Source of the DNA: Mycolicibacterium smegmatis
GTDB taxonomy: Bacteria > Actinomycetota > Actinomycetes > Mycobacteriales > Mycobacteriaceae
Direction of reading: 5' to 3'
Length of the DNA stretch: 32,000 bases
Assembly: GCF_001457595.1 (NCBI RefSeq)
Contig: NZ_LN831039.1
Location: forward strand, 600,001 to 632,000
This document shows positions 7,061 through 30,978 of the stretch, one piece after another (within the stretch, counting starts at the first letter, position 1; every line of letters starts with the position of its first letter). The notes beneath the pieces are model-generated. The model did not search any database, had not been told where the DNA came from, and saw only the letters and a list, made by a program, of their open reading frames with translations. A program made the position numbers and the translations under genes.

Positions 7061-7135
7061 TCGCACCTCCGAAACTTGCAGCGACAGAGTGATTGAAGAT
7101 CAGCCACCACAGGTTCGGGCGGCGTGCGAGCAGCA

Positions 7136-7963: not shown

Positions 7964-8037
7964 CCGAGGAGCTTCGCAGAGTCCTGGAGCGCTCGCACGT
8001 CATTTTGTCGGCGGCTCCCGGCCTTGGATAAGCCCAG

Positions 8038-8071
8038 TTGATCATCTGGCAATGCGATTAGCATCGCTTAC
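8038..8071 (+). promoter_or_regulatory. candidate leaderless promoter plus palindrome in front of the LysR gene
   Basis: TAGCAT (TANNNT) at 8059..8064, 7 nt before GTG 8072, with no SD. TTGATC at 8038..8043. The inverted repeat GCGAT-tagc-ATCGC at 8054..8067 spans the -10 element. Confidence 0.3.
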
Positions 8072-9720: not shown

Positions 9721-10685
9721 TCCGCGTTCTGCGCGAACTGCGGATCCAGCAGCGTCCCCAGCGCCTCCTGGGCGGCCTGCTCGGATTTGATGTCTCCGTC
9801 GGCCACCGCGATCGGAACGATCTTCTCCAGCACGGTCTTCTGCGCCGCCCCCGGCACCGGGTCGATGTCCAGAGCCGTCCGCTCCATCTCCTCCTCGGCC
9901 ACCGACTGGCTGATCTTCGCTTCCTGCGCCAGCAGCGTCGTCAGTTCGGCTGGGTGCTCCAGCGCCCATTTGCGGGCCTCCTCATAGCTGTTCACCACCG
10001 CCTGGACGGTGTCGGGATGCGCTGCGCTGAAGTCCTCGCGAACATTGAGCACCCCATAGGAATTGAACTCGGGATTGCGGTACAGCAGGCGGGCGCCCTG
10101 CTCCTGGACGGTCTGCGCCATGAACGGGTCCAGACCGGACCACGCGTCGACGTCACCGCGCTCGAGCGCCGTCTTGCCGTCCGCGTGCTGCAGATTCACG
10201 ATCTCGACGTCGCTTGCCGAAAGACCGTTCGCATCGAGGGCCTGCAGCAGGAAGAAGTACGGATCGGTGCCCTTGGTCACCGCGATCTTCTTGCCCTTGA
10301 GGTCGGCCACCGACTTGACCGGTGAATCCTTGGCGACCACCAGTGCGGTCCATTCCGGCTGGCTGTAGACGTCGACCACCTTCAGCGGGGTGCCGTTGGC
10401 GCGGGCGACCAGCGCCGCCGAGCCCGCTGTCGACCCGAAGTCCAGCGCGTTCGAGCGCACTCCCTCGTTGGCCTTGTTGCTGCCCGCGGACAAGATCCAG
10501 GTGACGTTGTACCCCTGGTTCTCCAGCAGCTTCTGGTCACGCACGACCAGGCTCAACGGGTTGTAGTAGGCGTAGTCGAGCCGGATGTCCTTGTCCGACG
10601 ACTCACTGCCCTCGGAACTGCAGGCGGCCGAGGTCGCGGCGAGGGCGACGGCCGTCAGCAATGTGGCCAAGTGACGAATTCTCAT
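9717..10685 (-). CDS. ABC transporter substrate-binding lipoprotein, NitT/TauT (SsuA-like) family (322 aa)
   Basis: Lipoprotein signal MRIRHLATLLTAVALAATSAAC with a lipobox Cys. Periplasmic binding protein fold typical of sulfonate/nitrate/taurine binders. Confidence 0.88.
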   Translation of the reverse strand: MRIRHLATLLTAVALAATSAACSSEGSESSDKDIRLDYAYYNPLSLVVRDQKLLENQGYNVTWILSAGSNKANEGVRSNALDFGSTAGSAALVARANGTPLKVVDVYSQPEWTALVVAKDSPVKSVADLKGKKIAVTKGTDPYFFLLQALDANGLSASDVEIVNLQHADGKTALERGDVDAWSGLDPFMAQTVQEQGARLLYRNPEFNSYGVLNVREDFSAAHPDTVQAVVNSYEEARKWALEHPAELTTLLAQEAKISQSVAEEEMERTALDIDPVPGAAQKTVLEKIVPIAVADGDIKSEQAAQEALGTLLDPQFAQNAD

Positions 10686-15173: not shown

Positions 15174-16225
15174 GCACCATCGAACTCAGCGGAATCACCA
15201 AGACCTACGGCGGCAGCGCCGTGGTCGACGGGCTGGACCTGACCCTGCGTGACGGCACGCTGACGGTGCTCGTCGGCCCTTCGGGCTGTGGGAAATCGAC
15301 CACCCTGCGCATCGTCGCCGGCCTGGAGACCGCCGACAAGGGTGCGGTGCGCATCGCCGGCCGTGACGTCACGAGTGCCACCCCGCGCGAACGCGACGTC
15401 GCGATGGTCTTCCAGAACTACGCCCTGTACCCGCATCTGACGGTCGCGGGCAATGTCGGTTTTCCGTTGAGGAACAGCGGAGTGGCCAAAACCGAAGTGG
15501 AGCAACGCGTTGCCCAGGCGGCCGAACGTGTGGGGATCACCGCGCTGTTGGACCGCAGGCCGCGTCAGCTCTCGGGCGGACAGCAGCAACGCGTGGCCAT
15601 CGCACGCGCCCTGGTGCGGACGCCTTCGGTGTTCCTGTTCGACGAGCCGTTGAGCAATCTGGACGCCAAGCTGCGTGTCGAACTGCGCTCCGAGATCCGG
15701 CGTCTGCAAACCGAAACGGGCATCACGTCGCTGTACGTCACCCACGACCAGGAAGAGGCGATGACCATCGCCGATCAGCTCGTCGTGCTCGACGCGGGTT
15801 CGATCGCTCAGGTCGGCACGCCCGAGGAGCTCTACCGGCGCCCGGCCAACACGTTTGTCGCCGGGTTCATCGGATCGCCGAGCATGAACCTCGTGCCGGG
15901 ACGGCTGCGGGCGGGTCGATTCGAGGCCGACGGGCTGACCCTGGTGGTTGCGGGCGACGACCGGGACGACGTGACGCTCGGGGTGCGTCCAGAGGATCTT
16001 CTGGTGGCCCCGGATCCCTCCGGCCCGGGCCGTGTGGAGCTGGTCGAGTTGCTCGGCCCGCGCTACGTGCTGATCATCCGGGCGGGTGCGCACCGGCTCA
16101 CCGCGGTCGCCGAGGCCGCCACGGTGTCGGAGTGGGCCGGCGTTCCAGCGGCCGGGGACCCGGTCTCGGTGCAGGCGCGCCCGGGGCGCACGCATCTGTT
16201 CGACAGCACCGGAGCGCGCATCTGA
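15170..16225 (+). CDS. carbohydrate ABC transporter ATP-binding protein (MalK/UgpC/SugC-like; 351 aa)
   Basis: Walker A GPSGCGKST, signature LSGGQQQRVAIARAL, Walker B FLFDEPLSNLD and a C-terminal MalK-type regulatory domain. The GTG start is in a GTGA overlap. The 616-aa ORF-track version is an Arg/Pro-rich shadow extension. Confidence 0.92.
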   Translation: MSTIELSGITKTYGGSAVVDGLDLTLRDGTLTVLVGPSGCGKSTTLRIVAGLETADKGAVRIAGRDVTSATPRERDVAMVFQNYALYPHLTVAGNVGFPLRNSGVAKTEVEQRVAQAAERVGITALLDRRPRQLSGGQQQRVAIARALVRTPSVFLFDEPLSNLDAKLRVELRSEIRRLQTETGITSLYVTHDQEEAMTIADQLVVLDAGSIAQVGTPEELYRRPANTFVAGFIGSPSMNLVPGRLRAGRFEADGLTLVVAGDDRDDVTLGVRPEDLLVAPDPSGPGRVELVELLGPRYVLIIRAGAHRLTAVAEAATVSEWAGVPAAGDPVSVQARPGRTHLFDSTGARI

Positions 16226-16409
16226 CCACGGTTGCTGGGTCCTGCGCGCGTGCAGGGTGTAGATTCGAAGGTAGGCCGCTCTCGTCAGCGTTACACCTCT
16301 GGCGTCCGACGCCTCACCTGACACCCCATCGAACGGCCGGCCTGCGAAATCTTCTTCGCTCGCCCGCAACTACGTGTGTGGGTCGAACCCGCACTTCAAG
16401 GACTTGTTT

Positions 16410-16547
16410 ATGGATACGTCCAACCTGTTTTCACACCCCGAGAAGCACGAGACCATGCCGCCCGAGAAGCGCACGGCCGAGCCGGTCACGGGACCGCTCT
16501 TCTCGGATCGCCCCCACCAACAGCGCGCCGACAAGCGGCCGTCGTGA
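16410..16547 (+). CDS. unannotated small ORF (45 aa: MDTSNLFSHPEKHETMPPEKRTAEPVTGPLFSDRPHQQRADKRPS)
   Basis: Below the 60-aa cutoff of the ORF track. AAGGA SD at 16398..16402, 7 nt before the ATG. 39 of 45 codons end in G/C, against 26 of 56 in the competing frame. Its TGA overlaps the GTG of the next gene (GTGA). Confidence 0.45.
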   Translation: MDTSNLFSHPEKHETMPPEKRTAEPVTGPLFSDRPHQQRADKRPS

Positions 16548-17071
16548 ACGGGCTGGTCGGGTCGCGACGGCTGGCGAGCCCGGTTCGTCTGACCCTGGCC
16601 AAGAGACTGGGGCGCGATATCGACGGGGCCTGGTGGCCTCGCAGCGCGTCGGTCGCCAAGGAACTGCCTGAGCTCGTCGAGGTGCTGCAACGCCCGCTCG
16701 GCGAGATCGTCGACATCAACATCAACTGGTCACCGGGCGAGGGTCAGTTGGACCTCAACACCATCGCCGCGGGCAGCCGGACTCAGGCCGCCTTCAAGCC
16801 GACGCGTCCGCGGGTGATGTCGGTGGCCGGCCGTGCGGAGTGCGTGAAACTCCTCGTCGTTCCCCACATGACGTCCGAAGCTCTCGGTGGCATCGTCATG
16901 CGTTGTGCGGCAGGAATGTTGATCGAGAGCACCGTGCGCAGCACCCCGCTGTACGACACTGCCGTGCGCATCATGGGTGCCGCCCAACAGGAGTCGGCGC
17001 GATGGCTGGGACGCCGTGCTGAAGGCGCGGGGGTTCCGACCGCCAGTGTGGAGTCGCCTGCCGGGGCGTGA
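16544..17071 (+). CDS. DUF5994 family protein (175 aa)
   Basis: The core RLTLAKRLGRDIDGAWWPRSASVAKELPELVEVL...VDININWS...LLVVPHMTSE is characteristic of the actinobacterial DUF5994 family. GC3 drops upstream of 16544, so the ORF-track start at 16376 is rejected in favour of GTG 16544. Confidence 0.72.
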   Translation: MNGLVGSRRLASPVRLTLAKRLGRDIDGAWWPRSASVAKELPELVEVLQRPLGEIVDININWSPGEGQLDLNTIAAGSRTQAAFKPTRPRVMSVAGRAECVKLLVVPHMTSEALGGIVMRCAAGMLIESTVRSTPLYDTAVRIMGAAQQESARWLGRRAEGAGVPTASVESPAGA

Positions 17072-17095
17072 TCCGGTAGCACAAACAGAAATGGA

Positions 17096-17119
17096 CTGGT
17101 ACGGAAAATTCCGTACCAG
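17096..17119 (-). terminator. intrinsic terminator hairpin downstream of cspA (possibly bidirectional)
   Basis: Perfect 9-bp stem CTGGTACGG / CCGTACCAG with loop AAAATT. On the minus strand it is followed by the T-rich TCCATTTCTGTTTGTG. It sits between the convergent DUF5994 and cspA genes. Confidence 0.6.
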
Positions 17120-17143
17120 CCCACTGTTACGTCTGGGGGTCGA

Positions 17144-17347
17144 TCAGACCGCGGTAACGCCAACTGCCTGGGGGCCCTTGGCACCCTGCGTGATCTCGAA
17201 CTCGACGCGCTGATTCTCCTCGAGCGAGCGGAAACCGCTGCCGCTGATCTCGGAGTAGTGGACGAAGACGTCCGGAGCGCCGCCATCAGGGGCGATGAAG
17301 CCGAAGCCCTTTTCGCCGTTGAACCATTTCACAGTTCCCTGTGCCAT
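17144..17347 (-). CDS. cspA: cold-shock protein CspA (67 aa)
   Basis: [32 protein letters not shown] contains the RNP1 (KGFGFI) and RNP2 (VFVHY) motifs. The start is taken at the conserved MAQGTVKWF rather than the upstream ATG of the ORF track. Confidence 0.95.
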
Positions 17348-17367
17348 ATGTTTACTTCTCTCATTCA

Positions 17368-17393
17368 ATCCGGACGAACCAAAAACGCCGGAT
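17368..17393 (-). promoter_or_regulatory. stem-loop in the probable cspA 5' leader
   Basis: ATCCGG (17368..17373) pairs with CCGGAT (17388..17393) across a 14-nt loop. It lies 21 nt upstream of the cspA ATG within a 117-bp relatively AT-rich intergenic region. Confidence 0.3.
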
Positions 17394-17464
17394 CGCCCAC
17401 CCTAGCACATCTCTGGGCAGGAAATGAAAATTATTGAGCCAGTTTGCCTTTCCTATCCCATGCA

Positions 17465-21158: not shown

Positions 21159-22571
21159 TCACATGCCGATGAAGGACTCGATCCACCCGCGCGCGAAGTA
21201 CAGCACGAATCCGAGCGCCACGACCCACAGCAAAGGACTGATCTCGCGGAACTTCCCGGCCGCGGACCGCAGCACCACCCACGCCACGAAGCCGACGCCG
21301 ATGCCGTTGGCAATCGAGTAGCTGAACGCCATGGTCGCCACCGTGAGGACGACCGGCAGGGCCACGGAGAACTCGGAGAGGTCGATGTGGCGCAGATGCG
21401 ACACCATCATGGCGCCGACGACCACGAGCGCGGCCGCGGCCACCTCGGTCGGCACGACCGACGCCAGCGGCGCCACGAACATCGCCGCCAGGAACAGCAC
21501 ACCCGTGATCAGGTTGGCCAGGCCCGTGCGGGCGCCTTCCTCGATGCCCGCACCGGATTCGATGAAGACCGTGTTCGACGATGCCGACGAGGCGCCGCCG
21601 ACGACGGCGCCGGTGCCCTCGACGATCAGCGCCGATTTCAACCGGGGGAACGTGCCCTGCGGGTCGGACAGGCCGGCCTCGCGGGACAGACCCGTCATGG
21701 TGCCCATGGCATCGAAGAAGTTGGCGAAGACCAGGGTGAACACCAGCATGATGGCCGCCAGCGCGCCGATGCGGCTGAAGCTGCCGAGGCTCACCTCGCC
21801 CACCAGTGACAGATCGGGCATGGCGAACGGAGAACCCGACAGCGACGGCACCGAAAGTCCCCAGCCGCCGGGCTTTTCGACGGCCGAGCCGAGGTGCCAG
21901 ATCGCCTCGATCACGACGGCGACGACGGTGCCTGCCACGAGCCCGATCAGGATGCCGCCGCGTACGCGGCGCGCGACAAGGATCCCGGTGACCAGCAGCG
22001 TGAACACGAACACGACGGTCGGCACGGTGTTGATGGAGCCCTCGCCGCCCGCGCCCAGTCCCACCGGCGGCGACGGCAGGCCCGTCGAACCGATGAAGCC
22101 CGCGTCGACCACACCGATGAACAGGATGAACAACCCGATGCCCGCGGTGATCGCGAGCTTGAGCTGCATGGGGACGGCGTCGAAGACCAGGCGTCGCAGC
22201 CCGGTCGCGGCCAGCAGCACGATGATCAGACCGTTGATGACCACCAGGCCCATCGCCTCGGGCCACGTGACGGAGCCGACGACGGTGGTGGCGAGGAACG
22301 AGTTGATGCCGAGGCCCGCGGCGAACGCGAACGGCAATCGCGCGACGAGGCCGAACAGAATCGTCATGACGCCCGCGGCCAGCGACGTGACCGCCGACAC
22401 CTGAGCGAACTCCAGATTGTTGCCGTCCACGTCGGGCGCACTGGAGAGGATGACCGGGTTCAGCACGATGATGTACGCCATCGCGATGAACGTGACGACA
22501 CCACCGCGGATCTCAGCGGTGAGGGTCGACCCGCGCGCCGTGATGTCGAAGAAGCGATCGAGGCGATTCAT
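21159..22571 (-). CDS. NCS2 family purine permease (AzgA/PbuG-like adenine/guanine/hypoxanthine; 470 aa)
   Basis: MNRLDRFFDITARGSTLTAEIRGGVVTFIAMAYIIVLNP is the hallmark N-terminus of AzgA-type permeases, followed by about 13 TM segments. The start is taken at ATG 22571; the ORF-track extension to 22655 overlaps the upstream gene. Confidence 0.9.
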   Translation of the reverse strand: MNRLDRFFDITARGSTLTAEIRGGVVTFIAMAYIIVLNPVILSSAPDVDGNNLEFAQVSAVTSLAAGVMTILFGLVARLPFAFAAGLGINSFLATTVVGSVTWPEAMGLVVINGLIIVLLAATGLRRLVFDAVPMQLKLAITAGIGLFILFIGVVDAGFIGSTGLPSPPVGLGAGGEGSINTVPTVVFVFTLLVTGILVARRVRGGILIGLVAGTVVAVVIEAIWHLGSAVEKPGGWGLSVPSLSGSPFAMPDLSLVGEVSLGSFSRIGALAAIMLVFTLVFANFFDAMGTMTGLSREAGLSDPQGTFPRLKSALIVEGTGAVVGGASSASSNTVFIESGAGIEEGARTGLANLITGVLFLAAMFVAPLASVVPTEVAAAALVVVGAMMVSHLRHIDLSEFSVALPVVLTVATMAFSYSIANGIGVGFVAWVVLRSAAGKFREISPLLWVVALGFVLYFARGWIESFIGM

Positions 22572-22582
22572 AAGTGATGACC

Positions 22583-23680
22583 CTATGGGTGCGGGCCGTC
22601 CTGTGTGCGGAGTGTGCGGTAGAAGTTGACGTGTGTCTTCGCGGCCTGCGTCCACGTCATGGCTGCGGCGAGCGTCCGGCCGGGCGCGGGGTCGGCCGGT
22701 TCTTCCAGCGCCGCAGTCATTTCCCGGGCGAATCCGGCCGGATCGGCCGCGAAGCCGACGGTGTCGCCGAACACCTCGCGCAGCACGGGAAGATCGCGCG
22801 TCACCACTGGGCGCCCGGCCGCCAGCGCCTCCATCGCGGCCAGCCCGAAACCTTCCTTGGTCGAAGGAAACGCGAACACGTCACAACCTGCCACGAGGCC
22901 GGGCAGTTCGTCGTCGGCGACCGCGCCCAGAATCACCGGTTCCACGCCCAGTTCCGTGCAGCGTCGCTCGAACGCGCTGCGGTAGTCGCGGTAGTCGAAC
23001 AACGTCTCGCCGCCGCCGATTACGAGCGACACCTCCGGGTGCCGTTGCCGCAGCATGGCATAGGCCTCGACCAGATCGAGGGTGCCCTTGCGCGGTTCGA
23101 TTCCGCCCACCGTCAGCACATAGGAGCCCAACTCGTCGCGCCAGCGCCGGATCCCGGCCTCCTGGGCCGCGGCGGCGCTGAACCGTTGCGCGTCAACACC
23201 GTTCGGGATGACGACCGGGTCGAACCCCCACCCGGCGCGCACCTCGGCGGCGACCGCCGCGGACACACAGATCCGGGCGTAGGGTTCTGCGATGGCCTTC
23301 TCGTGGCATTCCGCGAGCACCGGAGTCTTGAACTGGTCGAGGTGGTGGATGGTGCGGATGCACGGACCGACCGCGTTGGCGCTGATGCAGTCCTGCGCGT
23401 GGACGATGTCGTAATCGGCCGGGGTGAAGGCGTCGCGCAGGGTCTCGATGGACCGCAGGATCCGGTCGGTGACCGTATCGCCGGGATGGTCGACGAATTC
23501 GACGAGACGGACCGTGACGGCGGGATTGATCTCACGGAAGAAACCGCGGTCGCCGCTGCGTGCCAGAGACCACACGGTCACGTCGACGCCCAGGCGTGCC
23601 ATCGCCTCGGCGAGGTACAGCGTGTGCACCACACCGCCGCGAGGCTTGGTGGAATAGGTCAGCAACGCCACCCGCATCAT
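22583..23680 (-). CDS. GT4-type glycosyltransferase, MSMEG_0565-family-like (365 aa)
   Basis: MMRVALLTYSTKPRGGVVHTLYLAEAM... and the E-x7-E block EGFGLAAMEALAAGRPVV. GGAGG SD, and ATGA overlap with the upstream gene. ORF-track residues upstream of 23680 are a shadow extension. Confidence 0.88.
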   Translation of the reverse strand: MMRVALLTYSTKPRGGVVHTLYLAEAMARLGVDVTVWSLARSGDRGFFREINPAVTVRLVEFVDHPGDTVTDRILRSIETLRDAFTPADYDIVHAQDCISANAVGPCIRTIHHLDQFKTPVLAECHEKAIAEPYARICVSAAVAAEVRAGWGFDPVVIPNGVDAQRFSAAAAQEAGIRRWRDELGSYVLTVGGIEPRKGTLDLVEAYAMLRQRHPEVSLVIGGGETLFDYRDYRSAFERRCTELGVEPVILGAVADDELPGLVAGCDVFAFPSTKEGFGLAAMEALAAGRPVVTRDLPVLREVFGDTVGFAADPAGFAREMTAALEEPADPAPGRTLAAAMTWTQAAKTHVNFYRTLRTQDGPHP

Positions 23681-24525
23681 CGGTCCGCCTCCGACGCTAC
23701 GTGGTAACTGCCCGGACGCAACTCGGTGAGGTGGTTCAAAACTCTTCTGGCACGCGTGATCTCGGCATGAACATCGATCTCGACCTTGGCCAGCCCGCCT
23801 TTGGACCGCGTGGTCGCCAGGATGTCGCCGCCGGGCCCGACCACCTTGGCCTGCCCGAGGAAACGCAGATTCCCCATCACGCCGGTCTGGTTGGACGACA
23901 CCAGCACCACCTGGTTCTCGGCCGCGCGCGCGCAGTCGTAGAGATCGAACAGCCGCGACTGGCGGTCTGCGGGCAGGCGCGAGGCGCGGTCGGTGACGCT
24001 GGCCGGCCACGCGGACAGCGCGGCGATGATGTCGGCGCCGCCCATGGCAAGTGTTCGTGCGGCCTCGGGGAACGTCTTGTCGTAGTCGATGAGCATGCCC
24101 ACGCGGCCGACCGGCGTGTGGAACGTGCTGAAGGTGTCGCCCGCCAGATACGTCAGCGATTCCCCGACCGGTTGGTGCACCTTGCGGTACGTGCCCAAAA
24201 CCCCGTCTCCGCAGACACATACCGCCGCGTTGTACCGTCCCCCGCCCGGCGCGGACTCGGCATAGCCCACGCACACCGTCATCGGCCCCGCGGCCGAGAC
24301 CACGGCCGCGATCTCGGGGCCGTCAAGTGTCAGCGCGGGCGGTGGATCGTCGGGATCGGGCCGGTGGAAGTCGCCGATGTAGCCGCCCAGGCACGCATCG
24401 GGAAACACCAGGAAATCGACTCCGTCACGCGCCGCCGACTCGATGATGCCGACGACCTTGGTCACGCCGCGGTCCAGGTCACGGCCGAAATGCGCCGCGA
24501 CCGCGCCCAGGGTGACCGGTGCCAT
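23677..24525 (-). CDS. carbon-nitrogen hydrolase (nitrilase superfamily) paralogue with a degenerate catalytic triad (282 aa)
   Basis: Clear CN-hydrolase fold (DFLVFPDA, YRKVHQP, GRVGMLIDYDKTFPEAAR). Asp43 replaces the catalytic Glu and Asp147 replaces the catalytic Cys; Lys115 is retained. GAGGAG SD lies in the 9-nt gap upstream. Confidence 0.85.
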   Translation of the reverse strand: MAPVTLGAVAAHFGRDLDRGVTKVVGIIESAARDGVDFLVFPDACLGGYIGDFHRPDPDDPPPALTLDGPEIAAVVSAAGPMTVCVGYAESAPGGGRYNAAVCVCGDGVLGTYRKVHQPVGESLTYLAGDTFSTFHTPVGRVGMLIDYDKTFPEAARTLAMGGADIIAALSAWPASVTDRASRLPADRQSRLFDLYDCARAAENQVVLVSSNQTGVMGNLRFLGQAKVVGPGGDILATTRSKGGLAKVEIDVHAEITRARRVLNHLTELRPGSYHVASEADR

Positions 24526-24534
24526 GCGCTCCTC

Positions 24535-25956
24535 TCACGCCTTCCCGAGACCCGTGACCGGCGACGTCAGCGCCGTCGTCGTCACGCCGTCCGGCCAGCG
24601 TAGGCGCACGCCCGGTTCGGCGGTCAACGACCCGCACTCGGAACTCGCCACACCTGCCGGCACCGCCGCGGATCCCAGCGCGCCGCCCACGGTGAGCATG
24701 CCGAAACCCGGAAAACACGTCAGCCAGGGGGCCATGCCGGCCGACGCGGGTCGCGGGATCGTCGCGACATCCAATTCGGCCCCGGTCCCGCTCGCTTCGG
24801 CCAGCATGCCCACGGTGCCGACGACGCCCGCCATGCTGACATCCTTGGCCGCGCGGGGCGCCATGCGGGCGACCAGACCGGCCATCGACGCCAGTTCCGC
24901 ACTGTTGCGCGATGTTGTCGAATCCCATTGGCGTCCGGTGTATCCCCGACGCCACCGACCGGTGGTGTCGGCGGTCAACCGCACCCGGTCCCCGGCGACG
25001 CCGCCACCCGCGGGTACCGGCGACACGGTGTGGCCCAGTGCGGTGACCGATAACGCGGCGGGCACGCCGAGTTGCGTGTGGCCGCCGAGCACCGGCACAG
25101 CCCACGCCGAGGATGCCGCCGCGATGCCGCCGATGATGCGGTCCAGCACCGCGCGCGTCGGGGCGGCCACTGCGTCGAGCAGTCCCGTCGGCGTCGCCCC
25201 CATGGCCGAGAGGTCGTTGATGTTGACCAGAACCGAGCACCAGCCCGCCCATTCCGGGTCGCGTTCCACCAATGACGGGATGATGGCGTCGCAGGCCGCG
25301 ACCAGGTCGGTGCCGGGAACAGGTGAGCCGTCGTCGCCGACGAATCCGGCCGGTCCCAGTGCGCCGTCGACCGCGCGAAGCGGGTTCAACGCCGCGCCGA
25401 GGAACGATTTGGTGGCCGCGGCGAGCGCATCGAAGGGGTTGATCTGTCGGCGCATCCACACGTGTGGGCGCGCGGCGATCTCGACGTCGCCCAGGGGGTC
25501 CCAGCCGAGCGCGGTGAACATCGGCTGGTATCGACGCTGCACGGTGGCCTCGAACCGGAGCACACCGGCGGATTCGGCGTACGCACATGCGGCGCGGACC
25601 AGCGCCGCCCCGATGCCGGTGATGCGCGTCGACCTGTCGACCACGAGCCGGCTGCCGGTCCACCAGCCCAGGTCGACTCCACCGACGGGTGCCAGACGTA
25701 CCCCGCCCAGGACCGATCCGTCGGCAGCGGCCGCGATCAGCACCACGACGCGCGGGTCATCGTCGATGTCGTCGTGGTCGCTGCCCGAGAACATGCCCTG
25801 GTCGACCACGAACGAATCGCGGCGCAGCCGACGGTAACTCGCGAGGTCGTCGGCGTTCTCGGCCGGGCGGATGAGAAACGGTGCGGTAGGTCGTGATCCG
25901 GCCAAAATGGACAGGTCGCCGGGCAGTGATGGTGTGCTGACGTCGAACTCGATCAT
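24535..25956 (-). CDS. GNAT N-acetyltransferase / PurM-like (AIR-synthase-related) fusion protein, MSMEG_0567/sll0787-family-like (473 aa)
   Basis: The N-terminal GNAT domain has an acyl-CoA motif RITGIGAALV (R-x-x-G-x-G). The C-terminal PurM-superfamily domain has NINDLSAMGATP and GGHTQ blocks. ATG 25956 overlaps the radical SAM stop by 1 nt (TGATG). Confidence 0.85.
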   Translation of the reverse strand: MIEFDVSTPSLPGDLSILAGSRPTAPFLIRPAENADDLASYRRLRRDSFVVDQGMFSGSDHDDIDDDPRVVVLIAAAADGSVLGGVRLAPVGGVDLGWWTGSRLVVDRSTRITGIGAALVRAACAYAESAGVLRFEATVQRRYQPMFTALGWDPLGDVEIAARPHVWMRRQINPFDALAAATKSFLGAALNPLRAVDGALGPAGFVGDDGSPVPGTDLVAACDAIIPSLVERDPEWAGWCSVLVNINDLSAMGATPTGLLDAVAAPTRAVLDRIIGGIAAASSAWAVPVLGGHTQLGVPAALSVTALGHTVSPVPAGGGVAGDRVRLTADTTGRWRRGYTGRQWDSTTSRNSAELASMAGLVARMAPRAAKDVSMAGVVGTVGMLAEASGTGAELDVATIPRPASAGMAPWLTCFPGFGMLTVGGALGSAAVPAGVASSECGSLTAEPGVRLRWPDGVTTTALTSPVTGLGKA

Positions 25957-27011
25957 CAGGCCCCCAGATTCTGCAGCACCGAGCAGGCGCCGCAGGCCGC
26001 GCACCCGGCCCGCTGATCGGCGCCTGACATTCCGGCCTGCCGCAGCAGGTCGGCGACGGCGCGTGACACCTTTTCGACCAGCCCGGAGTCCGGCGCGATC
26101 GCCCCATCGACGTCGGTGGCCAGCGAGCCGGACTGCGGACGGAACGGCACCACGAACGGATAGACACCCATGTCGATGAGTTCGCCGGCACCCGCGACGA
26201 GCTCATCGGGGTTCTCACCGAGCCCCACCAGCAGATACGTCGACACCTGGTTGCGGCCGAACACGCGCACCGCCTCACGCCACGCGGCCCGGTAGGCATC
26301 CAGCGCGACCGTGGCCTTACCCGGCATCCACCGGCTTCGCACCTCGTCATCGAGTGACTCCACGTGGATCCCGATGGCATCGGCCCCGGCCGCACGCAGT
26401 TCGGACAGCACGGCGAGGTCGGCGGGCGGTTCGCACTGGACCTGAATCGGCAGCGCAGGCACCGCGGCCTTCACGGCTCGCACGCAGCGCGCCAGATGCC
26501 GTGCCCCGCGGTCGGTTCCGGCCGACGTGCCGGTGGTCATGACCATCTGTGTCACACCGTCGAGGCGTACCGCGGCAGCGGCGACCTCGGCGAGTTCGGC
26601 GGGCCGCTTGACGGCCGTGGTGGCACCGGACCGCAGGGATTCCTCGATGGTGCAGAACCGGCAGCGCTGATCGGGGGAGTAGCGGATACACGTCTGCACG
26701 ACGGTGGTGGCCAGTACGTTGCGGCCGTGCAGACGTGCGAGTTTCTCGTAGGGGACGCCGTCGCCGGTCGTGAGGTCATAGAAGCGGGGCCGGTCGATGA
26801 CCTCGACGTCCAGTCCGGTGTCCTCGCCGTCGAGCAGCACGCGTGTGCCGTCGAAGACGAACGGGCTGAGCGGGTTACGCGGGATCGCGGCGTTGAGGCC
26901 GTCGATGACGAGGTGGCCGTCGGCGCTGGGGCCCGCGCCGGCGTTCCGGTGCACCGGGGGCCGGCCGCGGAAACCCAGGAGCGCGAGGTCGACTCGTGTG
27001 GACACTGTCAT
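25956..27011 (-). CDS. radical SAM protein, MSMEG_0568-family-like (351 aa)
   Basis: Cys triad C108-x8-C117-x2-C120 (CIRYSPDQRCRFC) ahead of a TIM-barrel-like region (MVMTTGTSAG, GIHVESLD). C-terminal C337-x2-C340-x2-C343. Confidence 0.82.
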   Translation of the reverse strand: MTVSTRVDLALLGFRGRPPVHRNAGAGPSADGHLVIDGLNAAIPRNPLSPFVFDGTRVLLDGEDTGLDVEVIDRPRFYDLTTGDGVPYEKLARLHGRNVLATTVVQTCIRYSPDQRCRFCTIEESLRSGATTAVKRPAELAEVAAAAVRLDGVTQMVMTTGTSAGTDRGARHLARCVRAVKAAVPALPIQVQCEPPADLAVLSELRAAGADAIGIHVESLDDEVRSRWMPGKATVALDAYRAAWREAVRVFGRNQVSTYLLVGLGENPDELVAGAGELIDMGVYPFVVPFRPQSGSLATDVDGAIAPDSGLVEKVSRAVADLLRQAGMSGADQRAGCAACGACSVLQNLGA

Positions 27012-27018
27012 GGCATAC

Positions 27019-28290
27019 CTACACCTTCATGGCGAGCCGCAAAACCGACTCGTGGTAGCTGCTGATGATCGTCGCGGCGATGTGCCGGGCATCGCGGTCG
27101 ATGCCGAGGAAGCGGCCGGATCCCCAGGTGTGCATCCACGGCAGCCCGACGAAGCTCAGGCCGGCGACATTGGTGATCCCGCGGGTCTGCATCGGCCGGC
27201 CCGCGCCGTCGAAGGCGCTGGCCGCTATCCACCGGTAATCCGGCCGGTAGCCGATCGCCCACACGATGCTGGTGATCCCGGCCGCAGCGAGATCCAGTGT
27301 GGTGGTCTCGGTTTCGGGCTTCCATACCGGTTCGTACCGTGAGGCAGGTGGTGCGTCGATCCCGTTGCGCTCGATGTGGGCATCGATGTCCGAACAGATC
27401 GAGTTGTAGACCGAATCGGCGTGATCCAGCGCTTCGGCCAGCGTGGGTTCGAACCGCAGCGTCGAGTCCTTCCCGTCTGCGAGCGTGCCGTAGAGCCTCA
27501 TCCCTTCGGTCGCGAACTGGCGCAGGTCCACATCGCGTCCACCGTCTCGTCCGGTGACGTAGTGGTTGGTCTTCTCGATCGCGGCCTGGCCTCCCGGATA
27601 CTGCTGGGCGGGCCGGTCGTACACGCCCATGTCGGCAAGCCAGGTCATGCAGTCCCTGCCACGGTAGAACCGCGCCACGCGTGGCGCGCCGCCCACCGCG
27701 AGGTGGACCCGGCGTCCGGCCAGGTGCAGGTCCTCGGCGATCTGGGCGCCGGACTGTCCGGTGCCGACCACCAACACGGCCCCGTCGGGCAGTGTGCCTG
27801 CGTTGCGGTACTGCTCCGAGTGGATCTGGAGGATGGTCTCGTCGAGTTGGGCGGCATACGACGGGATGACAGGCACGGGGTATCCGCCGGTCGCGATGAC
27901 GGCGTGGTCACACGTGAGCGTCGACTGACCGGATTCGTCCCGCAGGGTCACCTCGAAGCCGCCACCGGCGCGGTTCTGCAACCGGGTGACCTGGGTGTGG
28001 TTGCGCAGCGGCGGGTCGAAGGTGTCGAGCCAACCGGCCAGCCAGTCGACGACCTCGTCACGGGTCATGAAGCCGTCGGGGTCGGGTCCGGCATACGGGT
28101 AGCCGGGGAGCCTACAGTGCCAGTTCGGGGTGACGAGAGTGAAGTTGTCCCAGCGGGTGTCGGCCCACGCGTGCATCGGGGTCTTCGATTCGATCACGAT
28201 GTGCTCGATGCCTGCCCGCACCAGGTACCAGCTGACCGACAGGCCGGCCTGCCCACCGCCGATGACGGCCACGGGGACGTGGGTGGTCAT
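27019..28290 (-). CDS. FAD/NAD(P)-binding flavoprotein (class B monooxygenase-like), MSMEG_0569-family-like (423 aa)
   Basis: Two dinucleotide-binding motifs, VAVIGGGQAG (N-terminal) and LVVGTGQSGAQIAEDL (central). The ATG at 28290 is in an ATGA overlap with the preceding gene. ORF-track residues upstream are a shadow. Confidence 0.86.
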   Translation of the reverse strand: MTTHVPVAVIGGGQAGLSVSWYLVRAGIEHIVIESKTPMHAWADTRWDNFTLVTPNWHCRLPGYPYAGPDPDGFMTRDEVVDWLAGWLDTFDPPLRNHTQVTRLQNRAGGGFEVTLRDESGQSTLTCDHAVIATGGYPVPVIPSYAAQLDETILQIHSEQYRNAGTLPDGAVLVVGTGQSGAQIAEDLHLAGRRVHLAVGGAPRVARFYRGRDCMTWLADMGVYDRPAQQYPGGQAAIEKTNHYVTGRDGGRDVDLRQFATEGMRLYGTLADGKDSTLRFEPTLAEALDHADSVYNSICSDIDAHIERNGIDAPPASRYEPVWKPETETTTLDLAAAGITSIVWAIGYRPDYRWIAASAFDGAGRPMQTRGITNVAGLSFVGLPWMHTWGSGRFLGIDRDARHIAATIISSYHESVLRLAMKV

Positions 28291-28583
28291 GACGGCCCCG
28301 GTTCGGGGTGCATGGCGACGACCTCGAGCACCGCATCCCCGCTGAACCGCCGGGCGACGTTGACGATGCGCTGACGGGTCTCTGCCGCCGAGGTGCAGGC
28401 GAAGCCGTACTTGGCGCGTACCCGCTCGCTCGCCTCGGCCAGTGCTCGGCTCGAGCGCTCCACGAAATCGTCGACGGCGTAATGCGTTCCCGCGGTCAGA
28501 TGGTCGTGGATCACCAGGCTCGGGGAATAGCAACGCTGGGTGCTGCCGTCCGGCCACCGGACTTCGAAGGTCATCTCAGGCAT
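28287..28583 (-). CDS. small conserved protein, MSMEG_0570-family-like (98 aa)
   Basis: Compact high-GC3 ORF wedged between the nitrilase and flavoprotein genes with overlapping junctions. The start is ATG 28583 (8-nt overlap) or ATG 28574. Confidence 0.75.
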   Translation of the reverse strand: MPEMTFEVRWPDGSTQRCYSPSLVIHDHLTAGTHYAVDDFVERSSRALAEASERVRAKYGFACTSAAETRQRIVNVARRFSGDAVLEVVAMHPEPGPS

Positions 28584-29478
28584 GGGCGAGTTCCCGCCAC
28601 TTCGCGGTGCGCGGACCGTCGGAGTCGGTCAAAGGTGCGTAGACGTCGGGTCGGCGGTCGCGCAGATGGAACATCCCGGCCCGCATGGTGCGGAACGTCT
28701 CGTCGATGTCGACCTCGGCGACCGCCATACCGCTGTCGAGAAGAGTTGTGGCCAAGACGTTTCCACCCGGATCGACCACCTTGGCGTTGCCGACGTATCG
28801 CAATGAGCCGAAGCTCCCGCTCTGGTTGGACGCGACCCAGAACACCTGGTTGTCCAGTGCGCGGGCCATGTCGAACAGATTGAACCGGTAGGTCCAGCGG
28901 TCATCCTGGAGGTTCTGGGCTGTGGCGGTGCGGGCGGCCGGCCACGCCGACAGACTGGCGATGATCTGCGCGCCACCGAGTGCCATCAGCCGGGCGGCTT
29001 CCGGAAAGGCCTTGTCGTAGCAGATCTGCAGCCCGACCCGTCCGACCGGTGTGTCGAAGACCCCGTAGTCCGAGCCCGCCGAATACGACATGCCCTCGCC
29101 GAGTGGCTGGTGCACCTTGCGGTAGCTGCCGTAGACGTCGAATCCGTCGAGCACCGCGGCGGCGTTGTACCGCGTCTCGCCGTCGTCGGCCAGTTCGCAG
29201 AAGCCGATCGCGACCACGAGGTCACCGACGATCTGCTGGACCCGGGCGATCTCCGGGCCGTCGAGGCGGATGGCGGGCGGAAGCGACCGGCTCGTGGCCC
29301 GCACGGTGTCTCCGTGATTGCCCAGTGACGAGAGGTAGCCGCCGATGGCGGCTTCCGGAAGTACCAGGAAGTCGACGCCTTTCTCGCGGGCCTGCTCTGC
29401 CAGATCGGCGATGAGCGCGAAATTCTGTTCCAGGTCGCGGGTGAAGTTCGCCGAAACGGCGGCGAGTGTGGTCATCAT
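28576..29478 (-). CDS. nitrilase-superfamily enzyme with intact Glu-Lys-Cys triad (Nit1C / sll0784-type; 300 aa)
   Basis: DFLVLPEAA (Glu42), YRKVHQP (Lys121) and GLQICYDKAFPE (Cys153, second Glu). Confidence 0.9.
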   Translation of the reverse strand: MMTTLAAVSANFTRDLEQNFALIADLAEQAREKGVDFLVLPEAAIGGYLSSLGNHGDTVRATSRSLPPAIRLDGPEIARVQQIVGDLVVAIGFCELADDGETRYNAAAVLDGFDVYGSYRKVHQPLGEGMSYSAGSDYGVFDTPVGRVGLQICYDKAFPEAARLMALGGAQIIASLSAWPAARTATAQNLQDDRWTYRFNLFDMARALDNQVFWVASNQSGSFGSLRYVGNAKVVDPGGNVLATTLLDSGMAVAEVDIDETFRTMRAGMFHLRDRRPDVYAPLTDSDGPRTAKWRELAHA

Positions 29479-29487
29479 GGCGCGGCC

Positions 29488-30009
29488 TCAAACCATGTAG
29501 GTGGAGTTGATGATGGCGCCTTTGCGGGCGTAGTAGATGAGCGCGTCCTGGACGTCCAGCGGGTGCGCCGGAATGACGCCCTCGATGAGGTCTTCTTCGC
29601 GTCCGCCGTGCAGGCCGAGCCCGAACCGGCAGCAGAACACCGTGCCGCCCTCCTTGATGAAGGTGGCCAGCGCGTCGTTGATGTTCTGTTCACCCGGGAA
29701 ACCGGAGTCTCCGGTCTTCGGAAATCCGCGTGTGGCAAGGCAGTTGATCGATCCCGGCCCGTAGAAGTAGATGGCCGATTCGAACCCCTTGCGCAGCGCG
29801 CGGGTGGCCTGCAGCACGGCGACGAATGCGACCGACGACTCATGCGCGATGCCGTGCACCAGCGTGAAATAGCTTTCGCCGTCCTCGGCCTGGTAGTCGG
29901 GGAAGATCTTGGTACCGCCATATATGCTGGAGCCCTTCGGCAGCGCCGGATGCGGGATCTCGGCCAGCGAACTCTTGATGTTCTCGGTGATGGATTCGTC
30001 GAACGGCAT
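29488..30009 (-). CDS. MSMEG_0572/Sll0783-family-like (nitrogen starvation response) protein (173 aa)
   Basis: First gene of the operon. GGAGAG SD lies before ATG 30009. The 45-codon upstream extension in the ORF track (to 30144) runs into lower-GC regulatory DNA, so the start is not fully certain. Confidence 0.8.
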   Translation of the reverse strand: MPFDESITENIKSSLAEIPHPALPKGSSIYGGTKIFPDYQAEDGESYFTLVHGIAHESSVAFVAVLQATRALRKGFESAIYFYGPGSINCLATRGFPKTGDSGFPGEQNINDALATFIKEGGTVFCCRFGLGLHGGREEDLIEGVIPAHPLDVQDALIYYARKGAIINSTYMV

Positions 30010-30095: not shown

Positions 30096-30153
30096 ATTGC
30101 CGTGTGGTTAGGGATGGACTACTTCTGAATTGCCGAAATCTCACAGCGGCAAT
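30096..30153. promoter_or_regulatory. ATTGCCG repeat set in the Nit1C-operon upstream region
   Basis: ATTGCCG occurs at 30096..30102 and 30129..30135, with its inverted copy CGGCAAT at 30147..30153. The last two form a 7-bp stem with an 11-nt spacer. Confidence 0.35.
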
Positions 30154-30244
30154 GTGCTCGTAATAAGTGCAGCATGCGCCTTGACCTCAACCTCACTTGA
30201 GGTGCCAGGCTGGCTCTCATGACATGTGGACTCCAGTGGCCAGA

Positions 30245-30280: not shown

Positions 30281-30366
30281 TGGGGACCTGGATCGGCACG
30301 CAGTAACTTTCGTGGTGTTCCTGGATGAAAGAGTTCACACCGCATCGACAATGGCAGGAGCGGGTC

Positions 30367-30978
30367 ATGGCAGTGACCGCTGAGGCACAAGTGACCGACC
30401 ACGGCAGCAGCGCCGAGAGGTTCGAACGCGACGCACTGCCGCTGCTGGACCAGCTCTACGGCGTCGCGCGCCGGTACACGCGCAATCAGGCCGACGCCGA
30501 GGACCTGGTGCAGGAGACGATGGTCAAGGCGTACGGCAGTTTTCACACGTATCGCGACGGCACCAACATCAGGGCATGGCTGTTCAAGATCCTCACGAAC
30601 ACGTGGATCAACGCCTACCACACCGCCCAGCGACGACCAGATGTCGTGGTCACCGACACGATCAGTGACGCGCAACTGGCCGCGGTCGCGACGCGGTCGG
30701 AGACCGAACTGGCCTCGGCCGAGTTGGCGGCGCTGGAGTCCATGGGGGATTCAGAGGTGCGCGACGCGGTCGCGGCGCTGCCGGAACATCAGCGGATGGC
30801 CGTGTACTACGCCGACGTGGTCGGCATGCGGTACCAGGAGATCGCCGATGTGCTGGGTGTCCCCGTGGGAACCGTCATGTCCCGGTTGCACCGTGGGCGC
30901 AGGCGTCTGCGCGAACACCTCATCGGGTTCGCTTACCAGAGTGGCTATCTCGCCCGCCCGGCGGGCAGCGCAGCCTGA
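30367..30978 (+). CDS. ECF RNA polymerase sigma factor, SigH-like paralogue (203 aa)
   Basis: Region 2 [40 protein letters not shown] and region 4 [49 protein letters not shown] lies 7 nt before ATG 30367. Confidence 0.9.

Follow-up and report, generated by a model that had tools for sequence, protein, structure and literature searches.

What is the eight-gene set at positions 22583–30009 of the window (the whole stretch of Mycolicibacterium smegmatis DNA that was analysed, 32,000 nucleotides), and what do its products do together? The set is the M. smegmatis gpr operon, MSMEG_0572 to MSMEG_0565, and the explanation that we judge best overall, and quite probable, combines this identity, the regulation described for the operon and a joint action of its products on a small molecule made by the cell. 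All eight ORFs, as computed from the window, have ATG starts, zero internal stops and a GC3 of 0.83–0.87. Ten window proteins, among them the permease and the ECF sigma factor encoded on either side, match M. smegmatis entries exactly (eight of them entries from strain mc2 155, the two C-N hydrolases entries from another M. smegmatis strain); because of the identity to mc2 155 entries, the locus is literally MSMEG_0565–0572, from which the NCBIfam models take their names. Domains and families were assigned with curated NCBIfam (TIGR) cut-offs and Pfam, and six of the proteins scored above the NCBIfam cut-offs, passing seven models between them (Table 1). The initial annotation had made the same assignment to MSMEG_0565–0572, which the seven models and the protein identities bear out, as Pfam and NCBIfam do its domain calls. 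The operon is already published, so the observation is correct but not new; its name (for GlnR-dependent peroxide resistance), deletion mutant and phenotypes (Yang et al, 2018; PMC6039565) went unmentioned in that annotation.

The eight minus-strand genes with coupling junctions that had been described were recovered in full, with every ORF and all seven junctions reproduced. From 5′ to 3′, these are a 9-nt gap, an 8-nt overlap, a 4-nt ATGA overlap and a 7-nt gap (genes 1–5), followed by a 1-nt TGATG overlap, a 9-nt gap holding GAGGAG and a 4-nt ATGA overlap (genes 5–8). At the gene 2/gene 3 junction the 8-nt overlap is real and the alternative 1-nt gap is not, since residues M1-P2-E3-M4 of the 98-aa protein are invariant in 34 homologues. 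Transcription of the operon may extend into the NCS2 permease gene that follows; this gene lies outside the conserved gene set, none of the 80 related loci has it next to the cluster, and it has no entry in the GlnR regulon table.

Table 1. Features of the gpr locus, in window coordinates, with family-model scores and identical database entries.
Feature	Position	Strand	Size or placement	Family model, bits (cut-off)	Identical entry
Gene 1, MSMEG_0572, NitB/Sll0783 family	29488–30009	-	173 aa	TIGR04044, 259.7 (109.85)	ABK69987.1
Gene 2, MSMEG_0571, C-N hydrolase	28576–29478	-	300 aa	PF00795, 137	
Gene 3, MSMEG_0570, NitG family, small alpha/beta protein	28287–28583	-	98 aa	TIGR04042, 133.3 (79.85)	ABK75524.1
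Gene 4, MSMEG_0569, FAD/NAD(P)H flavoprotein, flavin-monooxygenase type	27019–28290	-	423 aa	TIGR04046, 646.6 (498.35)	
Gene 5, MSMEG_0568, radical SAM enzyme	25956–27011	-	351 aa	TIGR04043, 523.6 (303.7)	
Gene 6, MSMEG_0567, fusion of GNAT acyltransferase and PurM/AIRS-like ATP-dependent domain	24535–25956	-	473 aa	TIGR04045, 94.6 (68.45); TIGR04050, 519.8 (312.2)	ABK70770.1
Gene 7, MSMEG_0566, C-N hydrolase paralogue	23677–24525	-	282 aa		
Gene 8, MSMEG_0565, GT4 glycosyltransferase	22583–23680	-	365 aa	TIGR04047, 461.9 (259.85)	ABK69577.1
NCS2 (xanthine/uracil family) permease, ninth minus-strand gene	21159–22571	-	starts 11 nt after gene 8 stop	PF00860, 107.6	ABK72060.1
GlnR binding site GGCAATGTGCTCGTAATA	30148–30165	+	139–156 nt upstream of the operon's first ATG		
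SoxR-box-like palindrome CCTCAA-N6-TTGAGG	30185–30202	.	intergenic, shared with divergent ECF sigma gene		

About 60 of the 80 actinobacterial loci compared carry all eight families together, arranged in no fewer than four ways; gene order is evidently shuffled across Actinobacteria, a detail new to this analysis. Across the 80 loci the cluster is accompanied by no conserved transporter or uptake system, and an Amidohydro_2 gene joins it in 24.

The set had been labelled Nit1C-type, and MSMEG_0571 a nitrilase with an intact E-K-C triad. The triad stands (E42, K121 and C153, which together with E160 form an intact catalytic set kept in 69/70 loci), but the nitrilase name does not: against a cut-off of 502.6 bits, genes 2 and 7 reach 30.3 and 28.3 bits with the sll0784-type nitrilase model TIGR04048, which true Nit1C loci pass at 559.7 and 574.7 bits. 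A Nit1C/Nit6803 nitrilase identity is thereby ruled out for either C-N hydrolase, and the Nit1C-type label falls with it; in the HMM comparison that the initial annotation had proposed, the MSMEG-named models were all exceeded and the sll0784-type model failed. The best PDB sequence matches of MSMEG_0571 are 5h8i (an N-carbamoylputrescine amidohydrolase), PH0642 and D-carbamoylases, and both C-N hydrolases resemble carbamoylases and amidases. In MSMEG_0566, which is 49% identical to MSMEG_0571, D43 replaces the catalytic Glu and D147 the Cys nucleophile; its family has D-K-E-D in 65/68 loci and the Cys-to-Asp change in 68/68, and is conserved across loci at least as well as MSMEG_0571. Judged by these residues, MSMEG_0566 is a conserved, catalytically dead paralogue, which is also a new detail.

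These assignments bear on whether the operon has the canonical Nit1C function, in which a true nitrilase would, as in Pseudomonas, assimilate or detoxify cyanide or nitriles, with the PurM-like domain possibly making the nitrile. HypE, a PurM-superfamily enzyme, converts a carboxamide into a cyano group by dehydration and so provides a precedent; moreover, five of the proteins are orthologous to Nit1C proteins, the active hydrolase has a sub-threshold match (85 bits) to the archaeal nitrilase model NF040852, and 3ivz, among its near solved relatives, is deposited as a nitrilase. However, the defining Nit6803-type nitrilase is absent (scores above), NitC is matched at 25% identity, the AIRS-like domain falls into the sister subfamily TIGR04050 rather than TIGR04049, and literature searches found no report linking the M. 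smegmatis operon to cyanide; we hold this function to be very unlikely. The initial annotation's proposal of a PurM-made nitrile later hydrolysed by the nitrilase finds no specific support in the cluster, the active hydrolase having N-carbamoylputrescine and N-carbamoyl-D-amino-acid amidohydrolases as its nearest relatives of known structure, whereas the link it drew between Nit1C itself and cyanide assimilation is in print (PMC7815647; PMC11049912).

Yang et al (2018) read the terminal UGA of MSMEG_0571 as selenocysteine, yielding an 818-aa nitrilase–flavoprotein fusion that regenerates NADPH, with MSMEG_0567 as selenophosphate synthetase. The frame past this TGA is open for 95 codons in the window, reaching the flavoprotein gene, and TGA is the stop in 32/32 related loci, an invariance explained by its position over the conserved codons for Pro2 and Glu3 in gene 3. 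The linking frame nevertheless contains stop codons in 18/32 related loci, and has a GC3 of 0.53, compared with 0.85 for the MSMEG_0570 frame that it overlaps; the latter encodes a conserved family passing TIGR04042, and in many genomes the MSMEG_0571 and flavoprotein genes are not even adjacent. SelD does match gene 6 weakly, but at 29 bits this lies far under the cut-off of 125. By these comparisons, a further addition to the published account, the read-through is without comparative support, and we consider the selenoprotein extremely improbable.

The remaining proteins inform on the chemistry that might be carried out. For the AF2 model of MSMEG_0572 (pLDDT 79.9), proteins of the DsrE/YchN/TusD type make up the first nine Foldseek PDB matches and 12 of the first 13, and MSMEG_0572 is accordingly predicted, as a new detail, to have a DsrE/YchN-like fold; its Cys127 is invariant (80/80 loci), and the Pfam DsrE model gives no match at E ≤ 0.001. 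The model of MSMEG_0570 (pLDDT 93.6) matches no solved structure (best Foldseek PDB E = 1.4), likewise a new detail. MSMEG_0569 matches Pyr_redox_3, FMO-like and Lys_Orn_oxgnase in Pfam, and the closest chains of known structure, 4usr and 4a9w, were both deposited as monooxygenases. MSMEG_0568 carries a CX8CX2C radical-SAM motif, whose non-canonical form is newly described here, and a C-terminal CX2CX2C motif (Cys108, 117 and 120 kept in 71/71 loci; Cys337, 340 and 343 in 54/54), with weak matches to LipA/LipS2. Pfam assigns AIRS, AIRS_C and Acetyltransf_1 to MSMEG_0567, and Glycos_transf_1 and Glyco_transf_4 to MSMEG_0565.

GlnR activates gpr when nitrogen runs out, via an AT-n9-AT variant box upstream of the first gene. 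The site in the window is identical to the MEME site listed for peak 4 of the ChIP-seq data (MSMEG_0572; PMC3662644, supplement 8) and is unique in the window, where 0 chance matches are expected; in published EMSA experiments GlnR binds upstream of msmeg_0572. Induction by nitrogen starvation, which the initial annotation had stated for members of the set, is in print (PMC3662644; PMC4222082), and GlnR-dependent induction declines along the operon from 263-fold at MSMEG_0572 to 4.4-fold at MSMEG_0565, the MSMEG_0571 hydrolase being the second most induced gene (110-fold in the published GlnR-regulon values). A SoxR box upstream of gpr has been reported (PMC6039565); the SoxR-box-like palindrome occurs once in the window (0 expected) and does not occur upstream of the other related loci that were examined. 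Nitrogen-starved Δgpr cells are peroxide sensitive with a reduced NADPH/NADP ratio, and Δgpr biofilm formation demands more nitrogen (PMC6039565); a parallel NADPH defect has been published for a Synechocystis sll0783 mutant.

Such behaviour could reflect nitrogen-scavenging catabolism, in which a compound bearing an amide, carbamoyl or nitrile group, drawn from the environment or from expendable cell material, would be dismantled to yield ammonia for growth under nitrogen scarcity, the other enzymes preparing the substrate of the hydrolase. The operon is GlnR-activated together with ureases, amidases and permeases, and the strong induction of the hydrolase gene, the nitrogen requirement of Δgpr biofilms and the Amidohydro_2 gene that joins the cluster in 24 loci all agree with this. 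The reported phenotypes are, however, ones of redox balance and peroxide tolerance, conserved uptake systems number zero, and a glycosyltransferase, a GNAT, an ATP-dependent PurM-like domain and a radical SAM enzyme represent costly build-up activities, unusual for starvation salvage. We regard scavenging as possible, if somewhat unlikely.

In the reading that we favour, the eight products work together on a small molecule of endogenous origin rather than on a nitrile taken up from outside; the eight families travel together, and do so with no conserved transporter. Enzymes that draw on ATP, acyl donors and NDP-sugars typify biosynthesis. The GNAT–PurM-like fusion would acylate an intermediate and activate it with ATP; MSMEG_0568, with its extra C-terminal Cys cluster, would perform C-H functionalisation, which may be a sulfur insertion, the sulfur coming from DsrE-like MSMEG_0572 via its invariant cysteine (fold similarity at 13–17% identity and the weak LipA-type matches point this way). 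The flavoprotein MSMEG_0569 would oxygenate the intermediate, spending NAD(P)H, MSMEG_0565 would attach a sugar, and MSMEG_0571, the single active C-N hydrolase, would release ammonia from an amide or carbamoyl group, probably in a complex with its catalytically dead paralogue (a putative heteromer). Step order, and whether a molecule is built or degraded, are taken from domain types only, and the whole scheme, which we advance tentatively, is unlikely to be right throughout. Hints toward it are the carbamoylase/amidase-near hydrolase, the Cys-to-Asp paralogue, the invariant radical SAM cysteines, the DsrE-type fold and the weak LipA/LipS2 matches. An NAD(P)H-consuming flavoprotein monooxygenase gives no obvious reason for the operon raising NADPH/NADP, and the related Pseudomonas Nit1C cluster is needed for cyanide assimilation, a catabolic, nitrogen-gaining role. 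Our literature searches found no paper assigning a substrate or product to the cluster, consistent with what the initial annotation had stated, and a 2024 paper still remarks on the absence of experimental evidence on its function.

Comparison with known systems places the locus more precisely. It is the published M. smegmatis gpr locus (PMC6039565; Jenkins et al, 2013, PMC3662644), complete with the published GlnR site and with no locus-level difference, the two C-N hydrolases matching a non-mc2 155 strain exactly, which may mean that the window derives from another isolate. MSMEG_0571 has E-K-E-C in common with its best solved relatives, the N-carbamoylputrescine and N-carbamoyl-D-amino-acid amidohydrolases (non-nitrilase branches of the nitrilase superfamily), but it is paired with a conserved Cys-to-Asp paralogue and scores far under their family cut-offs (106.9 bits against 410 for the AguB model), so that its substrate is not one of theirs. 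The predicted fold of MSMEG_0572 matches DsrE, DsrEFH, TusBCD and YchN of the DsrE/TusD/YchN sulfur-relay family (Foldseek E 1e-5 to 3e-3, probability 1.0), although identity is only 10–17% and an extra N-terminal helix and loops are present.

Nit1C (nitBCDEFGH, Podar et al, 2005; Synechocystis sll0783–0787; Pseudomonas cyanotrophs) shares with gpr the five orthologous proteins, among them the NitB/Sll0783, NitD (radical SAM), NitG and NitH (flavoprotein) families under the same NCBIfam models, as well as GNAT and AIRS-like activities and control by nitrogen status. Identity to the Brenneria Nit1C proteins is 46–51% for NitB, NitD, NitG and NitH, 34–35% for NitE and NitF, and lowest for NitC. 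Nit1C, defined by Podar et al as strictly confined to subfamily-1 nitrilases, has a subfamily-1 (Nit6803) nitrilase, whereas gpr has two carbamoylase/amidase-like C-N hydrolases, one without the Cys nucleophile; which type of hydrolase a locus has goes along with the TIGR04049/TIGR04050 split and with whether the GNAT is fused, the GNAT/AIRS pair being diverged and fused in gpr. A GT4 glycosyltransferase is a constant member of the gpr type, and regulation is by GlnR rather than by sigma-54/NitA. Since neither C-N hydrolase is a Nit1C/Nit6803 nitrilase, the cluster is the actinobacterial sister type of Nit1C and not Nit1C proper.

Exact protein identities and family-model scores agree that the eight packed minus-strand genes are MSMEG_0572 down to MSMEG_0565 themselves, the gene set first proposed. 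All eight ORFs are borne out (each starts with ATG, none holds an internal stop) with GC3 values of 0.83–0.87, the coding signature for a 67% G+C genome, and reading the seven junctions off the sequence gives those first listed: +9, −8, −4 (ATGA), +7, −1 (TGATG), +9 (with GAGGAG) and −4 (ATGA). The second of these, between MSMEG_0571 and MSMEG_0570, is truly an 8-nt overlap, since the MPEM N-terminus of the 98-aa MSMEG_0570 is invariant in 34 homologues. Pfam upholds the domain calls (two CN_hydrolase proteins, a flavoprotein, a radical SAM protein, a GNAT + AIRS + AIRS_C fusion and a GT4 glycosyltransferase), MSMEG_0569 being a flavin-monooxygenase-type flavoprotein with two dinucleotide-binding parts. 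Membership was judged by bit score against the curated NCBIfam cut-offs of models named after the cluster; six proteins pass, because the window carries the eponymous M. smegmatis locus itself, and the one anticipated match that fell away is that to the Nit6803-type nitrilase model, for both hydrolases. By exact-sequence look-up MSMEG_0572, 0570, 0569, 0568, 0567 and 0565 are identical to mc2 155 entries (ABK69987.1, ABK75524.1, ABK74414.1, AFP37034.1, ABK70770.1 and ABK69577.1), as are the downstream permease and upstream ECF sigma factor; both hydrolases (MSMEG_0571 and MSMEG_0566) exactly match entries of another M. smegmatis strain, not mc2 155.

Scores of the operon proteins against NCBIfam models named after the cluster
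Model	Protein	Score (bits)	Cut-off (bits)
TIGR04044	MSMEG_0572	259.7	109.85
TIGR04042	MSMEG_0570	133.3	79.85
TIGR04046	MSMEG_0569	646.6	498.35
TIGR04043	MSMEG_0568	523.6	303.7
TIGR04045	MSMEG_0567	94.6	68.45
TIGR04050	MSMEG_0567	519.8	312.2
TIGR04047	MSMEG_0565	461.9	259.85

Positions of the operon, its surroundings and features of related loci
Sequence	Feature	Position	Strand	Remark
Window	Two adjacent paralogous PF06684 'Amino acid synthesis' genes	2467-3647	-	unrelated to gpr
Window	NCS2 (xanthine/uracil family) permease	21159-22571	-	11 nt after MSMEG_0565 stop
Window	gpr operon, eight genes	22583-30009	-	
Window	MSMEG_0566, C-N hydrolase paralogue	23677-24525	-	
Window	MSMEG_0568, radical SAM	25956-27011	-	
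Window	MSMEG_0570	28287-28583	-	
Window	Linking frame MSMEG_0571-0569	28291-28578	-	open
Window	Published GlnR peak-4 site	30148-30165		139-156 nt 5' of first ATG
Window	SoxR-box-like palindrome CCTCAA-N6-TTGAGG	30185-30202		123-140 nt 5' of divergent MSMEG_0573
Window	MSMEG_0573, ECF sigma gene	30325-30978	+	
Actinobacterial locus L036	Amidohydro_2 gene	9001-9984		between flavoprotein and first gene
Actinobacterial locus L012	AMP-binding ligase gene	8054-9568		between flavoprotein and radical SAM genes
Brenneria goodwinii L081	MocR-type regulator	7285-8763	-	upstream of Nit1C, opposite strand
Brenneria goodwinii L081	Propionate/acetate-CoA-ligase-like (AMP-binding) gene	15703-17415		overlaps nitH end
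Massilia L082	MocR-type regulator	6134-7546	-	upstream of Nit1C, opposite strand

The locus is already known as a type example that has been named, deleted and phenotyped; the name gpr comes from Yang et al (2018; PMC6039565), and this name, the deletion mutant and its phenotypes were in print but absent from the initial annotation. All eight genes are GlnR-dependent, with fold changes along the operon of 263, 110, 28, 37, 30, 26, 6.8 and 4.4 in the published regulon table; GlnR ChIP-seq peak 4 sits upstream of MSMEG_0572 (PMC3662644), binding there is backed by published EMSA, and RT-qPCR has taken in all eight ORFs (Yang et al, 2018; PMC6039565). The published MEME site of peak 4, GGCAATGTGCTCGTAATA, is present once in the window and was located via the published table; it is an AT-n9-AT variant, and the strict GlnR pattern GNNAC-N6-GNAAC has no match in the window. 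A simple sigma-70 promoter scan likewise returned no promoter, and terminator matches stood at chance level. That the eight genes are the gpr operon and are regulated in this way we regard as virtually certain.

Upstream of the divergent MSMEG_0573, a gene reportedly induced 136-fold by 7 mM H2O2, lies a SoxR-box-like palindrome. We rejected it as an element of cluster control that is conserved, because among the related loci examined M. smegmatis alone has it in front of the cluster; as the published SoxR effect on gpr is also only about 2-fold, it may serve MSMEG_0573.

Without gpr, nitrogen-starved cells lose the peroxide resistance that depends on GlnR and have a lower NADPH/NADP; constitutive gpr expression rescues a glnR mutant, and the operon is not induced by peroxide itself (Yang et al, 2018; PMC6039565). 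A parallel NADPH/NADP defect is on record for a Synechocystis sll0783 mutant, and growth of Pseudomonas on cyanide needs the related Nit1C cluster, in which only the nitrilase has a known role (PMC7815647, PMC11049912); our literature search found no report linking the M. smegmatis operon to growth on cyanide or nitriles. The gpr operon and its Nit1C relatives occur in at least 594 species genomes; Actinobacteria, Proteobacteria and cyanobacteria all have such clusters. In their hosts they rank with the genes under the strongest nitrogen control, and they influence redox balance, tolerance of peroxide, storage of PHB and the use of cyanide. The statement that no substrate or product has been assigned to them stands, in that we found no paper in the open-access literature assigning either; solving the chemistry would therefore fill a real gap.

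Yang et al (2018; PMC6039565) also suggested selenocysteine decoding of the UGA at the end of MSMEG_0571, to give an 818-aa fusion with the flavoprotein. The frame linking MSMEG_0571 to MSMEG_0569 is indeed open in the window; however, 18 of the 32 related loci carry in-frame stops there, the frame has a GC3 of 0.53 versus 0.85 in the overlapping MSMEG_0570 frame, and homologues of the two genes are non-adjacent in many genomes. The TGA of MSMEG_0571 is invariant because it overlaps the conserved Pro2-Glu3 codons of MSMEG_0570. On these sequence grounds we rejected the selenoprotein fusion, and the read-through claim is not supported.

Of the two C–N hydrolases, MSMEG_0571 has the intact E-K-C triad first described (E42, K121 and C153) plus E160, and the E-K-E-C set is retained in 69 of 70 actinobacterial loci. 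Its designation as a nitrilase could not be sustained: no nitrilase family model reaches its cut-off, the best family-model scores of the hydrolases all being sub-cut-off (106.9 against 410 bits for AguB, 85.1 against 500 for an archaeal nitrilase model), and among proteins of solved structure it lies closest to N-carbamoylputrescine amidohydrolase, PH0642 and D-carbamoylases. MSMEG_0566 carries D43, K115 and D147 and so lacks the triad; Asp replaces its nucleophile Cys in 68 of 68 actinobacterial loci (D-K-E-D in 65 of them). This paralogue is at least as conserved across loci as the active MSMEG_0571, which argues for a kept partner (non-hydrolytic or chemically altered) rather than a decaying copy; it has the look of a pseudoenzyme that has been maintained, or of an enzyme whose chemistry has changed.

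The related loci also inform on how the families travel together. The loci listed by a search with a trimmed alignment were all actinobacterial, giving a comparison set of 80 loci. About 60 of these hold all eight families, in at least four gene orders, examples being (numbering MSMEG_0572 to MSMEG_0565 as 1 to 8) 1-2-3-4-5-6-7-8 in mycobacteria and Gordonia, 1-5-6-2-3-4-7-8 in Rhodococcus and Nocardia, 5-6-1-2-3-4-7-8 in Promicromonospora and Janibacter, and 4...1-5-6-2-7-8 in Amycolatopsis and Kribbella. Co-occurrence in shuffled orders speaks for a functional link between the families and against synteny by descent. Conservation does not extend to any flanking gene among the 80 loci, the M. 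smegmatis permease and ECF sigma gene not being cluster neighbours elsewhere; the permease, absent from all 80 and from the GlnR regulon table, was rejected as a ninth member of the conserved system, and low-level read-through from the operon into it may occur. Accessory genes do lie inside the cluster: in 24 loci an Amidohydro_2 gene separates the flavoprotein gene from the first gene, and in six an AMP-binding ligase gene separates it from the radical SAM gene; a further AMP-binding gene directly follows nitH in Brenneria (table). Elsewhere in the window, the PF06684 pair is adjoined by genes for an alpha/beta hydrolase, an aldehyde dehydrogenase and a BCCT transporter.

Three further proteins show features bearing on function. 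In MSMEG_0568 of the actinobacterial loci an invariant C108-X8-C117-X2-C120 replaces the radical SAM CX3CX2C, and the protein passes PF04055 and the 'variant_rSAM' model NF045502 despite this non-canonical motif; a C-terminal C-X2-C-X2-C, also invariant, could hold a second cluster within the enzyme. A model of MSMEG_0572 (pLDDT 79.9) matches DsrE, DsrEFH, TusBCD and YchN structures in a Foldseek search of the PDB (top matches 3pnx, 1jx7, 2pd2, 3mc3, 2qs7, 2hy5 and 2d1p; E 1e-5 to 7e-4), and this predicted DsrE-like fold confirms an older fold assignment; a sequence search against PDB chains gave no match. All 80 loci keep its Cys127, a candidate for the DsrE/TusD active-site Cys. The family is small: of a library that holds 1.84 billion proteins, only 202 clusters (50% identity) match it at E ≤ 0.001. 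For MSMEG_0570 the AlphaFold model is confident (pLDDT 93.6), but Foldseek finds nothing significant for it among PDB structures (best E = 1.4).

Regulation and physiology are demonstrated; the chemistry we infer from these components. We favour an endogenous small molecule as substrate, because no transporter travels with the cluster, because several of its members are of the build-up type (ATP, acyl donor, SAM, NDP-sugar) and because the phenotypes concern redox balance. An amide or carbamoyl group would be a likelier target of the C–N cleavage than a nitrile, and there is a faint hint of a possible sulfur step, in which the DsrE-like carrier MSMEG_0572 might feed the LipA/BioB-like radical SAM enzyme. 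This chemistry is put forward tentatively and is unlikely to hold as proposed. The main rival, nitrogen scavenging, is itself doubtful: it fits both the GlnR regulon and the Pseudomonas data, but does not fit the enzyme mix. The operon might, although we think this highly improbable, supply nitrogen-starved cells with a redox buffer or cofactor not previously described, a small molecule that is glycosylated and contains sulfur. The pieces of such a pathway would be the DsrE-like sulfur carrier MSMEG_0572 with its invariant Cys127, a LipA/BioB-like radical SAM whose C-terminus holds an auxiliary cluster, the GT4 glycosyltransferase (the family including MshA and BshA) and the GNAT, while the universally conserved Cys-to-Asp paralogue would hold substrate for the active hydrolase with no catalysis of its own. 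Such a product, if real, would explain the NADPH/NADP and peroxide phenotypes common to mycobacteria and cyanobacteria.

The window, as the type locus, adds no new locus and leaves a long-standing question no more testable than before; what it offers is a sharper set of hypotheses, namely that the substrate is an amide or carbamoyl compound instead of a nitrile, that the dead paralogue is obligatory and that one step may involve sulfur. New details from the 80 loci include the Cys-to-Asp conservation, the radical SAM Cys motifs, the gene-order shuffling and the accessory genes. The original interpretation had the right cluster and a pathway that is still an orphan; it missed the gpr papers, and its Nit1C and nitrilase labels are wrong.

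By its original definition, Nit1C is a cluster of seven genes that occurs strictly with nitrilases of subfamily 1 (Podar et al, 2005). Two control Nit1C loci, obtained by a second homologue search and contig look-ups, pass the Nit6803 nitrilase model (TIGR04048, cut-off 502.6) with 559.7 bits in Brenneria goodwinii and 574.7 in Massilia; the window hydrolases score 30.3 and 28.3 bits, and by this sequence measure the cluster is not Nit1C in the strict sense. The sigma-54 regulator NitA described in Pseudomonas is absent among the called genes of both controls, and a MocR-type regulator (GntR HTH plus aminotransferase domain) lies upstream of Nit1C in each (table). The proteobacterial loci combine a Nit6803 nitrilase with a separate GNAT gene and a TIGR04049-type (sll0787-type) AIRS-like protein, whereas in the actinobacterial ones (the window, Kutzneria L047 and Rhodococcus L030) neither of the two hydrolases is a nitrilase, the GNAT is fused to a TIGR04050-type domain and a GT4 is present; MSMEG_0567 accordingly reaches 171.3 bits against the TIGR04049 cut-off of 321.3 and passes TIGR04050 instead. 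Hydrolase type thus co-varies with GNAT fusion state and with TIGR04049/TIGR04050 type, a split already known, since the NCBIfam curators encode it in separate models. The likeness to Nit1C resides in the NitB, NitD, NitG and NitH families, which meet the same NCBIfam models as in Brenneria and share 46, 48, 50 and 51% identity with the Brenneria proteins; NitE, NitF and NitC share 35, 34 and 25%, and the separate NitE (GNAT) and NitF (AIRS-like) genes of Nit1C are in the window a single fused gene.
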